From NCBI RefSeq assembly GCF_013167455.1, contig NZ_CP038328.1: a stretch of 64,000 bases of DNA; one strand, written 5' to 3'. Made by a program: the position numbers and the translations under genes. The notes under the pieces were generated by a model. It saw only the letters and a list, made by a program, of their open reading frames with translations. It was not told the DNA's origin and made no database searches. The DNA is from Escherichia coli O157:H7. GTDB taxonomy: Bacteria > Pseudomonadota > Gammaproteobacteria > Enterobacterales > Enterobacteriaceae. Shown here in pieces: positions 1-4,982 of the stretch (positions within the stretch are counted from its first letter, which is position 1; each line of letters opens with the position of its first letter).

Positions 1-333
1 TTCGGCACCGTCACCGAAGCGTTAGAACTTGATACAGCCAAGAATGGTTACATCCTCTTGGTTCAGGACGCAGAGCCAAACTTCGATGTAAATGGCAACT
101 CTCCGGGAACTCCGGATAGTTGGATAAGCTGTAGTGATCGAATGCCTGAAAAGGGCCAGAACGTGCTTATTTCAGTGAATTTCGATAGCTCTCTGGTTGA
201 ACCGCTAATATGCTCCGCACGCTATACCGGAAGCACCTTTCGGCGCGGAGATGCAACGATTAAGCCGGGTAATGGTATTGAGCAAGCAACTCACTGGATG
301 CCGCTACCGGAACCGCCGCAGGAGGTGAAGTGA
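1..333 (+). CDS. DUF551-like prophage protein, 5'-partial (reading frame is open to the window edge; track ORF 58..333 begins at TTG)
   Basis: Frame 1 has no stop from position 1; the product contains a W-I-S...SDRMPE motif typical of DUF551 prophage proteins; stop overlaps the next gene start (ATGA). Confidence 0.5.
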   Translation, partial: FGTVTEALELDTAKNGYILLVQDAEPNFDVNGNSPGTPDSWISCSDRMPEKGQNVLISVNFDSSLVEPLICSARYTGSTFRRGDATIKPGNGIEQATHWMPLPEPPQEVK

Positions 334-905
334 TGAACAACTTAATGATCGACCTTGAGACGATGGGGAAAAATAAGGATGCACCGATCGTTTCCATTGG
401 CGCGGTGTTCTTCACTCCAGAAACCGGAGACATCGGACAAGAATTCTATGCGGTTGTCAGCCTAGACAGTGCTATGAAGCAAGGAGCTACACCTGACGGC
501 GATACCATCCTGTGGTGGTTGAAACAAAGCCCTGAAGCGCGAGCTGCAATCTGTATTGATGATACTTTGTCGATCAGCGATGCTCTCTCAGAACTAAACC
601 ATTTCATTAACCGGCACGCAGACAATACGAAATATTTAAAAGTCTGGGGTAACGGGGCCACCTTCGACAACGTAATTTTACGTGGAGCTTACGAGCGAGC
701 AGGACAAATCTGCCCGTGGGCGTACTGGAATGACCACGATGTACGCACGATCGTTACGCTTGGGCGTTCCATCGGATTCGACCCCAAAATGGACATGCCT
801 TTCGATGGCGAACGGCACAACGCCCTGGCTGATGCCCGTCATCAGGCAAAATATGTTTCCGCTATCTGGCAGAAATTAATTCCTGCCACCAGCACAGAAT
901 TATGA
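330..905 (+). CDS. phage-type DnaQ-like 3'-5' exonuclease (about 190 aa)
   Basis: N-terminal MIDLETMG...PIVSIGAV is an Exo I motif of DEDD exonucleases; this size and context are common in lambdoid prophage early regions. Confidence 0.6.
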   Translation: MMNNLMIDLETMGKNKDAPIVSIGAVFFTPETGDIGQEFYAVVSLDSAMKQGATPDGDTILWWLKQSPEARAAICIDDTLSISDALSELNHFINRHADNTKYLKVWGNGATFDNVILRGAYERAGQICPWAYWNDHDVRTIVTLGRSIGFDPKMDMPFDGERHNALADARHQAKYVSAIWQKLIPATSTEL

Positions 906-914
906 TTTTCCCGG

Positions 915-1223
915 GTGCAGCCGGTTTTGATGGAGAAAATTATGAACACCTTGTTTTTACTGATGGCTGAATTCAATACCCCAAACATTGAACTCTCAGC
1001 AGTTAGCCAAAAGTACTTTGGTATGAGTCCAGCCACGGCAGAAGCAAAAGCAAACGCTTGTAAGTTGCCCGTTCCAACATATCGCATCGGCACATCACAA
1101 AAAGCAAAACGTTGCATCAATATTCAGGATCTTGCGGAATACATAGACAAAAGGCGAGAAGAAGGACGTATCGAGTGGGAACAGGTCAGAACAGTCAAAC
1201 AGAAGGGCAAAGAAAATCACTAA
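915..1223 (+). CDS. PrtN/excisionase-like small DNA-binding protein (true start may be an internal Met, MEKIMNTL or MNTLF)
   Basis: Product MNTLFLLMAEF...LPVPTYRIG resembles PrtN-family pyocin activator/excisionase-like proteins; followed by a strong hairpin. Confidence 0.45.
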   Translation: MQPVLMEKIMNTLFLLMAEFNTPNIELSAVSQKYFGMSPATAEAKANACKLPVPTYRIGTSQKAKRCINIQDLAEYIDKRREEGRIEWEQVRTVKQKGKENH

Positions 1224-1258
1224 AGAAAAAACCCGCCTGAAGGCGGGTTTTCAAAAAG
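1224..1258. terminator. intrinsic terminator hairpin (aacccgcctgaaggcgggtttt), potentially bidirectional
   Basis: Perfect GC-rich inverted repeat with flanking A/T tracts, between convergent gene sets. Confidence 0.55.
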
Positions 1259-1270
1259 CACCAGCTATGA

Positions 1271-1444
1271 TCATGCTGCTTTGAGACGACGAAGCTTACC
1301 CTGCTGCTCTTTACCAGAGACAGTAGCGTGAGTGAACGCATTAGGAGCAGCCTTCATCAGAACTTCAACAGCAGCACCCATACCTACGAATGCTTTCATT
1401 GTGTCGAACTTAACCTGTGGCTTGGTTGCTTTTTGATCTTCCAT
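1271..1444 (-). CDS. small hypothetical protein (about 57 aa), not in the ORF track
   Basis: ATG preceded by GGAG at 7 nt spacing; translation MEDQKATKPQVKFDTMKAFVGMGAAVEVLMKAAPNAFTHATVSGKEQQGKLRRLKAA; ends just upstream of the hairpin at 1224..1258. Confidence 0.3.
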   Translation of the reverse strand: MEDQKATKPQVKFDTMKAFVGMGAAVEVLMKAAPNAFTHATVSGKEQQGKLRRLKAA

Positions 1445-1483
1445 AGAAAACTCCAGAAGTTATACCGAAACAATTCCTGTTGT

Positions 1484-1903
1484 TTACTCATCATCAATAG
1501 ATGATACGCAATATTTATTTTTAAATTTAAGGTTCTTTGGCGTAACTTCATCAGAGATATCAAAACCGTCCAGAATTCTATTGAATGTAGCTTCTGGCAT
1601 ATCATCATGAACAGAAATCTCACCCGATCGCTGCTTTCTAACCATGTTATCCACTCGCCAAATTATAGCTTCAGCGTAAACAACATAACTTGGATGCTTG
1701 ATAAAGCGATGATCACCAGAATTCAAGACGCAAGACGGATCGTGGGGGACACCATCCTTGATACTAGAAATATTAACAACTAAAACACAATAACAATCGT
1801 TAACGGGGTAATAAACAGGATCATTACAAATCACATGAAGATGATTGCATGGTCCAGTTGGGGCAAGCACAGTTCCTTTCCTGTATGGCTGATAATCCGT
1901 CAT
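1484..1903 (-). CDS. hypothetical protein (139 aa), candidate toxin/effector partner of the upstream Panacea-like gene
   Basis: Start ATG overlaps the stop of the upstream gene (ATGA at 1900..1903); no recognisable family motif and no predicted TM segment. Confidence 0.5.
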   Translation of the reverse strand: MTDYQPYRKGTVLAPTGPCNHLHVICNDPVYYPVNDCYCVLVVNISSIKDGVPHDPSCVLNSGDHRFIKHPSYVVYAEAIIWRVDNMVRKQRSGEISVHDDMPEATFNRILDGFDISDEVTPKNLKFKNKYCVSSIDDE

Positions 1904-2472
1904 GATAATTGCAAAGAAAATTCCTTAAGTTTCTGAGATTCTTCCATTTTGCCAATTATGCGATTAGCCTCATCCTCGCTTTTACCCTCACTGATCAGCA
2001 TTTCTTTCAGGTCTATAGGCTTACGAGAATTGCCAGGATCGTGCCACTCTGGACAAACGCTTTCTAAATGCGTCATATTTGCGAGATCAAATCGGTTCAT
2101 ATGCCCATACCGAGAATAGATTTCATCTAAAATCCGGATATCTGCACGACTCAATTCATCAAAGACCTCGTCTGCATCCATTTCCCTCGGATCTGAACGC
2201 AACGATACATTATGCCCGTTCGTCTCTATCAAGTTGTACCAGTAGTCACCAATGCCTTCAGCCTTACCGCGAATCAAGTTCAGCGTATTCGACATGACTG
2301 GTCCAAATTTCATAGAGTAAAGGCTATCTTCGCCGATCATCCTGCCATGCTTCAAAATCGACTGGCGGTTAGACAGATAGAGCAGCTTCATCAATTTCAG
2401 ATATGCCATGCGCCCACCTCTCTTAAGAAGTAGGTATGCAGCCATTTGAGCTACTTTTTCTTCGCAAAACAT
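1900..2472 (-). CDS. Panacea (DUF4065; SocA/GepA-like) domain protein, candidate antitoxin
   Basis: N-terminal pattern YLKLMKLLYLSNR...SLYSMKFGPV matches the LKLQKLLYxA...GPV hallmark of Panacea/GepA phage-associated proteins (from memory, not searched); GAGG SD upstream. Confidence 0.5.
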   Translation of the reverse strand: MFCEEKVAQMAAYLLLKRGGRMAYLKLMKLLYLSNRQSILKHGRMIGEDSLYSMKFGPVMSNTLNLIRGKAEGIGDYWYNLIETNGHNVSLRSDPREMDADEVFDELSRADIRILDEIYSRYGHMNRFDLANMTHLESVCPEWHDPGNSRKPIDLKEMLISEGKSEDEANRIIGKMEESQKLKEFSLQLS

Positions 2473-3119
2473 ATAAGAAACCTCAAAGATAGTGAACTTT
2501 ATAATTATTCTCGATACTTCATGGGTTGCTTCATCACCAACATGAGCTTCTTATGGTGTGCCCACTTGGGCCTAAGCAACCAGTTACCTCGTTTGTCAAG
2601 TTTATAGCTGGCTTTAACCATGGTCAATTGAAGTGATGAGCAAATGATGCTTTCTAAGAATAACAGGTTCCCAATAGGCTCCCACAAAGTGCATAACTAG
2701 TTGTTTTTCAAAAACGGTACATCCTATCGAGCATTGGTGCAACGCTAAACCGACCACTCCAGTGAACGTCAGTTTTTTCAGGCATTGCGCTGGTTTGGTT
2801 GATTTTTTGCATTTCAGAATTACCGTGCATTTTCAAATGTAGAGATTATTTTATCGATATATCATGTGGTTATGTTATTCAGCATCACTGTTCAGGAGGC
2901 TCAATAACGGGGTACTATACCATAACAACAGGAAGCGCCTGTCTCATTGCAAAAGAAAATTGAGATCCTCTCAAGGCATGAAGCTCTCACGAAGTGAATA
3001 TCTAATCTTATTAGATGTTAGCGTTGTGAAAAGCAATGATAAACAATACAGATTCGACGATAAATAAAAATCACACATTAAACTCCGGTGATATCTCTCC
3101 CTGCTAATAGCACTGATAG

Positions 3120-3156
3120 AGAAAAAAAGAACCCAATAAACATTGGGTTCTTTTAT
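3120..3156 (-). terminator. intrinsic terminator for the 318-aa gene (gaacccaat-N-attgggttc followed by a T-run on the minus strand)
   Basis: Inverted repeat plus poly-A on the plus strand immediately downstream of the minus-strand stop at 3192. Confidence 0.5.
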
Positions 3157-3191
3157 GTAATACCTTTCATACCATCGAAGAACTTCACATA

Positions 3192-4148
3192 TTATTTCTC
3201 CGATTTAACCCCGAATAAATCATAAATTAATTTAGAAGTGCCTGTATATATTTTAATCTTTTCCTTTGAGTTTGGGTCAAACGACTTAGCAAAGTCAATT
3301 AATTTCGGTGCAGCATCTCGCATTTTGCTTAAAATATCAGGGGCGAGCGTTCCTTCATTCACCAGATGTGACATCTTATCCAGATAGCCATCAAAATTCA
3401 TTTCTCCCCCATCTGCCAGACGCTTCATCTCTCCCAGGTACTTCTTCATATCACGTTGAGATAATTCTTCAAACTGAGCTTTCAGGTAGTTATCATTATA
3501 TTCATTAATATTCACTCTTCCTGCAAAATCTGAGTAGACACTAGAATATGAAAGGGAAATTAACAGCGAAGCAAATAATTTTAAGCTGTTGTCATCATGT
3601 TCCTGGCAGGCATTAACAAACGTTAAGAAACCAGAACCTATTGCTTGCAAATGTATATTCGCTAAAGGTTCATTATCTTTAGATTCCTCATAAAATAGCT
3701 GAACCGTGGAGGGAAGACCATTCTTGGTTTCTACATCAAAAGTACATCGTTCTATGAGTGTCGCATCTTTATTATCCTCGGGATTACATATACTATTAAT
3801 CGCGAAATGAAAAATAGCCCTGTCAACAACTGATGCAATAAATTCACGATCGTTTAATTCCTCATCAGTACAATCTCCAATATACTCATTGACACACATT
3901 TTGAGATCGTTTATTTGCTTAATTAACGTCACATTTTTTTCACGTGCAGTCCATAAATTATGAGTGATTCTTTGAATAAATAAATCTATTTTTGCAATAA
4001 TTATATCCCGATGACGCATCGTTGAATAATCAATAGATTTACCATATATACTATTTACTTTACCTTTGATTGCATCTTCATTATCGAATTGATTTGAATT
4101 GAGTGTTTTATTAAAGTATCCTGTTGCACCGGGTATTATCTTTAACAT
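3192..4148 (-). CDS. hypothetical protein, 318 aa, AT-rich; possibly the intact form of the yjbL+yjbM locus
   Basis: Long uninterrupted ORF with its own terminator and an AT-rich divergent promoter region shared with zur; no family recognised. Confidence 0.6.
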
Positions 4149-4466
4149 GATTCATCTACCTTTTTTGTCGTACCGTGTCCTCCTTATAAGTGTTTTTGGA
4201 ACCGGTAACTATCAAAAATCGCTCATAATTTTCTGAAATTCGGGTATACGATTAGCCACGGTTAAATAAATAGCGAGTTAACTTGAAGCAATTTATTTAA
4301 AAATGAATTATTAATTATTATCGTGTTGATAATGGTACTGCCAGGCAACACAACATCTTACCTACAAAACAGAAAAGCAACATTACGGCAACAATAAGGG
4401 TTCTCGGTGTTTTTCCTGGAACATGGTAAAGTAAGGACATTCTTAACCCCCACTTTGAGGTGCCCG

Positions 4467-4982
4467 ATGGAAAAGACCACAACGCAGGAGTTATTAGCGC
4501 AGGCTGACAAAATCTGCGCGCAGCGTAATGTGCGCCTGACCCCACAGCGCCTGGAAGTGTTGCGCCTGATGAGTCTGCAGGATGGCGCTATCAGCGCTTA
4601 TGATCTGCTTGATTTGCTGCGCGAAGCTGAACCGCAAGCCAAGCCGCCAACGGTTTATCGCGCGCTGGATTTTCTGCTTGAGCAAGGTTTTGTGCATAAG
4701 GTGGAATCCACCAACAGTTATGTGCTCTGCCATCTGTTCGACCAGCCCACCCATACGTCAGCTATGTTTATTTGCGATCGCTGCGGCGCGGTGAAAGAAG
4801 AATGTGCTGAAGGCGTGGAAGACATCATGCATACGCTGGCGGCAAAAATGGGGTTTGCCCTGCGGCATAATGTGATTGAAGCACATGGGCTCTGTGCGGC
4901 ATGCGTGGAAGTGGAAGCGTGTCGTCATCCTGAACAGTGCCAGCATGATCACTCTGTGCAGGTGAAAAAGAAACCGCGTTAA
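4467..4982 (+). CDS. zur: zinc uptake regulator Zur (Fur family)
   Basis: Product MEKTTTQELLAQADKICAQRNVRLTPQRLEVL... recognised as Zur; GAGG SD upstream; start is the internal Met of track ORF 4407..4982. Confidence 0.9.
   Translation: MEKTTTQELLAQADKICAQRNVRLTPQRLEVLRLMSLQDGAISAYDLLDLLREAEPQAKPPTVYRALDFLLEQGFVHKVESTNSYVLCHLFDQPTHTSAMFICDRCGAVKEECAEGVEDIMHTLAAKMGFALRHNVIEAHGLCAACVEVEACRHPEQCQHDHSVQVKKKPR

Follow-up and report, generated by a model that had tools for sequence, protein, structure and literature searches.

Among described systems, the gene reported here resembles the EspX-type genes of Escherichia coli (those for EspX/YjbI, a pentapeptide-repeat protein of the "SopA family", and for EspY, EspL and EspR), which are likewise AT-rich genes among core genes and, at yjbI and yjcF, coincide with promoter islands. 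Such backbone effector-like genes (EspX, EspY, EspL, EspR) tend to be intact in enterohemorrhagic E. coli (EHEC) and decayed in K-12. The gene also resembles the contingency loci of Neisseria, Haemophilus and Campylobacter, in that a poly-A run early in its ORF sets the reading frame and varies in length between strains. In K-12, the spacer between zur and yjbL is itself a member of the promoter islands, being bound by H-NS and having low transcriptional output (Panyukov and Ozoline, 2013); that work deals with the control region only, says nothing on a protein, and used K-12, in which the gene is disrupted. We analyzed a 64,000-nucleotide stretch of DNA from E. coli O157:H7 (RefSeq assembly GCF_013167455.1, contig NZ_CP038328.1; hereafter the window), in which the gene beside zur is a single 318-aa open reading frame (ORF) of the DUF2713 family.

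Within the DUF2713 family, which is restricted to E. coli, this ORF is an intact allele of the O157:H7 type, and yjbL and yjbM of K-12 are two halves of this one gene. In contrast to the EspX-type genes, it shows neither sequence nor fold likeness to them and has no pentapeptide, leucine-rich-repeat or SopD-like module; in contrast to the contingency loci, its tract is only 6-8 nt long, further irreversible lesions are common, and the mechanism would be unusual in E. coli. We consider it highly probable that the locus as a whole is best explained as an intact allele of a gene that is split in K-12, hypervariable and often lost, and that would encode a silenced, outward-facing accessory protein used in certain niches. 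The split is already on record and is not a discovery of ours: RefSeq flags the K-12-type copy as a frameshifted pseudogene, and the Sakai annotation lists the counterpart ECs_5030. The bare finding adds nothing beyond RefSeq, in which the K-12 pair is already annotated as a frameshifted DUF2713 gene and the intact gene is present in thousands of genomes.

Relation of the O157:H7 gene to yjbL and yjbM

The interval 3192..4148 on the minus strand is one unbroken reading frame with an ATG start at 4148 (stop codon included), preceded 9 nt upstream by an AGGT Shine-Dalgarno-like sequence (about 4158..4161, minus strand). A terminator hairpin follows 38 nt past the stop codon, with a folding energy of -19.8 kcal/mol (z = -2.6 versus shuffles), and is the sole terminator-like site within 2900..4600. 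The gene is a single-gene unit with its own terminator, and zur runs divergently from it across an AT-rich spacer of 318 bp. The preliminary description of this stretch had reported an uninterrupted ORF, a terminator of its own and an AT-rich region divergent from zur, and the window sequence bears out each of these. We take the ORF to be a real gene rather than a chance reading frame because the other two sense frames of the interval meet a stop every 10-20 codons, because dN/dS (the ratio of nonsynonymous to synonymous divergence, dN and dS) is 0.40-0.53 between allele classes, and because intact orthologues are annotated in thousands of genomes.

Residues 84-318 match the full length of Pfam PF10897 (DUF2713; model positions 1-235 of 235, E = 1.8e-143), and the gene lies where K-12 has yjbL-yjbM, with dusA on one side and the divergently transcribed zur on the other, and is colinear with both YjbL and YjbM. 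The window allele is 100% identical to the copies that RefSeq names "DUF2713 family protein" in O157:H7 genomes. A search with the 1.3-kb locus found a match in 4,274 of 5,426 complete E. coli genomes (79%), with about 21% giving no match at all. The Sakai counterpart, ECs_5030, is labelled "yjbM" and its product is annotated at 298 aa. This annotation (3632..4528 of the corresponding Sakai stretch, L010) is 20 codons shorter than the 318-aa ORF called in identical sequences by the NCBI Prokaryotic Genome Annotation Pipeline (PGAP); codon 21 of the window ORF is TTC (Phe), at odds with Sakai's shorter start.

A K-12-type strain (L001) carries the same gene in the same place under the PGAP label "DUF2713 domain-containing protein, frameshifted". 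Residues 1 to about 74 of the window protein are matched by its 84-aa ORF (YjbL), and the remainder by its second ORF, of 246 aa from a GTG or 235 aa from the first ATG (YjbM). At the DNA level the two copies are colinear with a nucleotide identity of about 90%, the differences being a 1-bp deletion in a run of A's and an in-frame 30-bp repeat unit. Restoring one A yields a K-12 protein of 328 aa with no stop; YjbL's final three residues are read out of frame, and YjbM starts at an internal Met. The proposal in the preliminary description that the K-12 pair is a frameshifted remnant of the window gene is thus upheld: similarity was present on alignment to both products, with YjbL matching N-terminally and YjbM over the rest. 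Its argument from length stands only in part, as the sum of 84 and 235 (319) is indeed close to 318, but this agreement is partly coincidental given a repaired K-12 protein of 328 aa.

A profile search of 1.84 billion representative proteins returned 58 matches, comprising E. coli-type sequences or fragments and fewer than 10 distant full-length paralogues of 300-430 aa, which are 20-27% identical and align over the whole length. The best conserved of the motifs common to these paralogues, AKxDxF...W (A52, K53, D55 and W66 in window numbering), lies in the "YjbL" part and outside the Pfam model; further shared motifs are DRxIFxF (D109, R110, F113), an LLxSLLIS.SY.S..AD segment and a C-terminal I..LLG. 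The paralogues are rare (clusters of 1-2 members) and derive from assemblies of E. coli or from gut metagenomes, on short contigs rich in insertion sequences (IS). One lies 1.5 kb from a gene that combines a SopD2-like N-terminus with PipB/PipB2-like pentapeptide repeats, a KfrA gene also being found there, and others adjoin AIDA/Ag43-type autotransporter genes, hok/gef, and IS elements or transposases. Paralogue DNA was absent from the 5,426 complete E. coli genomes and from PLSDB, where only IS or group II intron pieces were matched, and no relative was found in 100,044 species-representative genomes. Judged by these searches, the family appears to be essentially confined to E. coli. One assembly labelled E. 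coli (GCA_009015175.1; L009 and L011) contains two different distant paralogues (P0150 and P0186), neither of which has a DNA match in the 5,426 complete genomes; it may represent an unusual lineage or a mixed assembly.

These relatives also bear on the converse explanation, in which yjbL and yjbM would each be a genuine gene and the 318-aa ORF would have arisen by their fusion. K-12 databases do list two genes, and Pfam DUF2713 was built on the 235-aa YjbM. We nevertheless give this explanation almost no credence, since three deep allele classes (below) and the 20-27% identical paralogues are single ORFs that are colinear over their whole length, the best-conserved motif of the wider family falls in the "YjbL" part, a single homopolymer base separates the split form from intact alleles, and YjbL terminates in three out-of-frame residues. 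A fusion of two genes in the window was accordingly rejected on the colinear single-ORF relatives and the one-base homopolymer difference. Pfam PF10897 leaves out the N-terminal third of the protein, covering residues 84-318 only, because it was drawn on the truncated YjbM. PHROG 29005 and 28007 were also built on K-12 fragments (YjbM of 235 or 246 aa; the first 40 aa of YjbL), and together the Pfam and PHROG models split one protein and omit residues 33-83, including A52, K53, D55 and W66.

Allele diversity and recurrent inactivation

At least three allele classes occupy this one locus. The main class spans 85-100% protein identity and carries 0, 1 or 2 extra 10-aa repeat units, with intact alleles of the same class being 85-88% identical; the L003-type and L004-type classes, found at the same locus, have 50-52% protein identity to the window protein. 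The window allele has the fewest repeat units, K-12 has one more and BL21-type alleles have two more, with Tandem Repeats Finder counting 3.4 repeat copies in the longest allele (L026). Nucleotide identity measured in a sliding window is 55-80% only between about 3000 and about 4350, an interval that takes in the gene and reaches into its control region, compared to 97-100% in the flanks. Between allele classes dS was 0.70-0.82 and dN/dS 0.40-0.53, and between the window allele and the repaired K-12 allele of the main class they were 0.13 and 0.46, compared to 0.03-0.11 and 0-0.06 for zur in the same strains. Within the main class, dS is near that of zur, but dN exceeds that of zur more than 20-fold. 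The hypervariable spot has sharp boundaries, and its protein is evolving fast, under some constraint. The deep classes are either old balanced alleles or recombination imports that entered via the conserved flanks.

The lesion in K-12 lies in codons 80-82 of the K-12-type allele, where a run of eight A's has shrunk to seven (A8 to A7). Among alleles of the common "...HNLWHARKKNVF..." type, the intact ones (L020 and L026) read CGT AAAAAAAA TGTG, with eight A's, and the O157/O145 allele has G+A7, in frame. The ten frameshifted alleles that we read came from a K-12-type laboratory strain, from BL21 and from eight wild isolates (five of human and three of animal or environmental origin), and in all ten the lesion was at this same run (A7 in nine, A6 in one). 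They sit on three backgrounds that differ from one another at 38-65 of 131 variable sites, with L020 the nearest intact relative of the K-12 group and L026 that of the BL21 group. PGAP applied its "frameshifted" flag to each of the 10 frameshifted copies checked, including the K-12-type copy, and to none of the three in-frame copies checked.

Of the 4,283 matching genomes, we sampled 60 at even spacing; these held 54 full-length main-class copies, of which 32 (about 59%) had a length not divisible by 3 (986 nt in 21 copies, 992 nt in four, 1022 nt in three, 991 nt in three and 985 nt in one). ORFs that start at GTG after the frameshift ("MFLIEQI...") form protein clusters of 647 and 186 members, with sources including ENA, NCBI and Logan. 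These assembly sources, together with K-12 and BL21, argue against A7 being a long-read homopolymer error. Other lesions are also present: the 991-nt alleles have two independent additional indels, and hundreds of member sequences represent shortened proteins of 242 and 261 aa. Since frameshifts and other lesions occur and about 21% of genomes have no match, many lineages can do without the gene, which has been lost on many occasions; it has been inactivated mostly at the slippage-prone A-run, and also by truncations and IS1-associated loss. We observed IS1 at the DUF2713 site in two unrelated strains (3288..3985 of L005, from swine in China; 3092..3789 of L019, from a human in Indonesia), where the remaining match covered just 76-102 nt of the query, from either the gene start or the part of the spacer near zur. 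This suggests that deletion by IS1 is a second recurrent way in which the gene is lost.

The same polymorphism could mean that the A-run is a switch rather than a scar, making this a phase-variable or recoded locus toggled by A8/A7/A6 slippage. Tract length varies between A8, A7 and A6 at one site in several backgrounds, and as in contingency loci the simple-sequence tract changes the frame (A8 intact, A7 and A6 frameshifted, on at least three backgrounds). The frame 3' of the tract is otherwise open in K-12, BL21 and most sampled A7 alleles; after AAA AAA, the -1 frame of K-12 would read AAT GTG TTT, matching the ...HARKKNVF... of intact alleles. Poly-A runs are slippage sites both for the ribosome, as in dnaX, and for RNA polymerase. 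We nonetheless find such a switch distinctly unlikely, and equally so its corollary that A7 strains make some full-length protein through a -1 ribosomal slip on CGT AAA AAA ATG or through an A added by RNA polymerase. For phase variation or transcriptional slippage to be efficient in E. coli, a run of 7-8 A's is short, and the 0-frame context, T AAA AAA, is unlike the classic A AAA AAG heptamer. Moreover, second-site lesions exist (the extra indels of the 991-nt alleles, the A6 allele, the 242- and 261-aa truncations and the IS1 loss), which argues for decay and not for reversible switching.

A wider version of the switch, still less probable in our judgment, would have the gene encode a species-specific protein of new fold used against or on another organism, for example a translocated effector, with its output toggled by A8/A7 slippage at the level of DNA, RNA or the ribosome. 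If so, the "pseudogene" seen in K-12, in BL21 and in roughly half of wild strains would represent a contingency gene in its OFF or leaky state, and the deep allele classes would be held by balancing or diversifying selection.

Probable silencing of the gene and possible roles of the protein

The DUF2713 gene has a GC content of 34.1% (28.8% at third codon positions, GC3) in a window of 50.4% GC, compared to 52-55% (GC3 54-64%) for zur, dinF, lexA and plsB. It is AT-rich relative to its neighbors and has atypical third codon positions, a composition that fits H-NS-silenced acquired genes. In K-12, the zur/yjbL spacer is among 78 "promoter islands", regions occupied by both H-NS and RNA polymerase that yield hardly any full-length transcript and are linked to genes of predicted foreign origin (PMC3661553); Genomic SELEX (systematic evolution of ligands by exponential enrichment) lists an RpoD promoter for yjbLM (PMC3946193). 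A candidate sigma-70-like -35/-10 site lies at 4344..4317 (minus strand) in the control region; the count of promoter-like sites in the scan equals that expected from shuffling. Composition and the promoter-island data (PMC3661553) both back the horizontal acquisition proposed in the preliminary description, with the qualification that the acquisition is old, the gene being at this locus in 79% of E. coli genomes. A zinc-related role as a member of the Zur regulon was rejected, as no Zur box (palindromic core, at most 3 mismatches) occurs near the gene; the sole match in the window, at 56336, is at chance level. Rfam gave nothing at gathering scores for the locus, its weak matches sitting on the terminator hairpin.

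The product is predicted from its sequence to be an acidic (isoelectric point 5.2), soluble protein of 36.2 kDa with no membrane segment or signal peptide. An AlphaFold2 model made from a 24-sequence alignment (mean predicted local distance difference test, pLDDT, 73.9; predicted template modeling score, pTM, 0.71) shows disorder over residues 1-43, which include the repeat, followed by helices (47-120), a sheet of three strands (135-166) and a bundle of helices (172-312), and the predicted fold has no relatives outside the family. Residues 1-43 are polar, with pLDDT below 50 and a maximum 19-residue hydropathy of 1.39, which fits a secretion signal but is not specific to one. The absence of a recognizable functional motif, remarked on in the preliminary description, held up against wider searches with the window protein: NCBIfam gave no matches, Pfam no domain besides DUF2713, PADLOC no family at E <= 1, and a PDB sequence search nothing better than E > 0.4, so that no characterized family was matched. 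The only PHROG matches were the yjbL and yjbM fragments themselves. Our literature search found no paper that mentions DUF2713 and none that addresses its function, and matches to the names yjbL and yjbM were mostly to unrelated Bacillus subtilis genes; locus tags brought up nothing relevant.

Our best guess is that the gene encodes a silenced, horizontally acquired accessory protein for particular niches, possibly secreted. It would have been acquired before E. coli diversified, would normally be kept silent and would bring a benefit only in some niches; such a niche-limited benefit would explain both the long-term retention of intact alleles and their repeated loss. The most likely role would be an interaction with something outside the cell, whether host, competitor or phage.

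One more specific form of this role is that of a secreted or type III-translocated effector or effector-like protein, or a former effector of the locus of enterocyte effacement (LEE) or of the E. coli type III secretion system 2 (ETT2). The polar, disordered first 43 residues and the lack of a signal peptide or membrane segment are compatible with it, and the five O157:H7-type copies sampled and that of O145:H28 are all intact, whereas those of K-12 and BL21 are frameshifted. The neighborhoods point the same way, with one distant paralogue 1.5 kb from the SopD2-N and PipB/PipB2-like gene, and with an EspX-like SopA-family gene (the yjbI homologue) 8 kb away in the window; the yjbI and yjcF regions are H-NS promoter islands listed alongside zur/yjbL (PMC3661553). 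Proteins that interact with a host typically evolve fast and have deeply diverged alleles, as this one does. However, the protein has no sequence or fold similarity to known effectors, its N-terminal features are unspecific, the frameshift occurs in some large, pathogen-sized genomes (for example, the 5.7-Mb 2010C_5028), many apparently commensal strains keep intact copies, and literature that joins yjbM with "type III" contains only mentions of a prophage insertion site. We regard an effector role as unlikely, although it outscores every other specific role that we can name.

A single-gene defense against phages or mobile elements, or a toxin-like gene, beside the dusA prophage hotspot is very unlikely. 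The gene does adjoin a known insertion site of prophages, including Shiga toxin (Stx) prophages, a prophage-like element abuts it in the window, and it is AT-rich, hypervariable and polymorphic for presence and absence, as genes at defense hotspots are. Yet it matches no PADLOC family, has no nuclease, NTPase, TIR, Sir2 or membrane domain and no partner gene, varies as divergent alleles of one gene at a fixed site and not as swapped systems, and finds only the yjbL/yjbM fragments themselves in PHROG. The remaining probability is spread over roles that cannot be named.

Several points weigh against the explanation of a silenced, niche-used and often lost accessory gene. Its proposed role is deduced from composition, variability and neighbors rather than from experiment or homology, and the H-NS data come from K-12, not from the O157:H7 strain. 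The structure model is of moderate confidence and derives from a shallow alignment of 24 sequences. The effector idea draws on one paralogue's neighbor and on a polar disordered N-terminus that is not specific; the window protein matches no known effector family, the gene is not known from published O157 effector lists, and most E. coli with an intact copy may lack a working injectisome. As regards inactivation, the frameshift frequency comes from 60 genomes, and the RefSeq complete set is biased to K-12 derivatives and outbreak clones; long-read assemblies can miscount homopolymers; and recombination could have carried one A7 event from background to background, in which case its origins would not be independent.

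Functional data on record are limited to two observations on yjbL and yjbM. In laboratory evolution, a yjbM mutation was non-fixed and had a negligible fitness effect of 1%. In a TraDIS-Xpress screen (PMC9687012), yjbL insertions were depleted about 5-fold (log fold change of about -2.4) at 0.25-1x the minimum inhibitory concentration of colistin, as were insertions in other AT-rich orphan genes (ybbC, ybcV, ygeN and yjbS). Candidate causes of the yjbL depletion are the gene itself, polarity on zur, or a property of H-NS-bound DNA.

Neighboring features and the meaning of the split gene

Features of the locus and of the adjacent elements are collected in Table 1. In genomes without an insertion the gene order is dusA, DUF2713 gene, zur, yjbJ, dinF and lexA. 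In the window, a prophage-like element sits in the 5' end of dusA (junction 2726/2727) and its last 2.7 kb (1..2726) lie within the window; the same prophage/dusA layout is annotated in L004 and L018, and yjbM-dusA figures in the literature as an insertion site of Stx prophages. At the edge of this element, the gene for a Panacea-domain protein overlaps the downstream 139-aa gene by 4 nt, resembling Panacea-type antitoxin-toxin pairs. We considered whether the DUF2713 gene is ancient cargo of a dusA-integrating element and rejected this, as no second dusA 5' fragment or att-like repeat was found between it and zur. The SopA-family protein farther along the window belongs to a family labelled "T3SS (type III secretion system) effector-like protein EspX" in Sakai (ECs_5048), and its gene is an AT-rich promoter-island gene.

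Table 1. Positions of the DUF2713 gene, its internal and flanking features, and other elements in the window.
Feature	Position	Strand	Basis
3'-5' exonuclease of prophage-like element	330..905		
PrtN/excisionase-like gene of prophage-like element	915..1223		
139-aa protein (phrog_19071) of prophage-like element	1484..1903	-	
Panacea-domain protein, 190 aa, of prophage-like element	1900..2472	-	
First 104 nt of dusA, remnant left by the prophage-like insertion at 2726/2727; left-hand context	2727..2830	-	
Intrinsic terminator of DUF2713 gene: 13-bp stem, 4-nt loop, T-run	3118..3154 (hairpin 3154..3125)	-	
DUF2713 family protein, coding sequence, O157:H7-type allele, 318 aa	3192..4148	-	ORF, Pfam, RefSeq identity, Sakai annotation
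A-run in codons 70-72 (CGT GAA AAA AAT), G+A7, in frame in window allele	3934..3940	-	
30-bp (10-aa, DAxKDKLDNxG-like) variable-number tandem repeat in disordered N-terminal tail	4055..4085	-	
AT-rich divergent control region common to DUF2713 gene and zur	4149..4466	.	composition, promoter scan, K-12 literature
zur, conserved core neighbor, right-hand boundary of hypervariable segment	4467..4982	+	
Intact 526-aa "SopA family" pentapeptide protein, yjbI homologue (NF007264, 1172 bits)	12187..13767	-	

These results mean that yjbL and yjbM are to be handled as one broken gene in K-12 data sets. A phylostratigraphy paper lists the pair as a two-gene "new operon", and the transposon screen scores yjbL alone (PMC9687012). 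The boundaries of Pfam DUF2713 inherit the K-12 truncation, dropping the N-terminal third of the protein together with its best-conserved motif. What interest remains lies in the orphan fold, in allele classes that are about 50% identical between near-identical flanks, and in a homopolymer that has been hit repeatedly. The locus offers a small, clean system for asking why a species retains, diversifies and repeatedly discards an orphan gene, and for functional tests, for which K-12 could never have served, the intact O157:H7 alleles are the material of choice.

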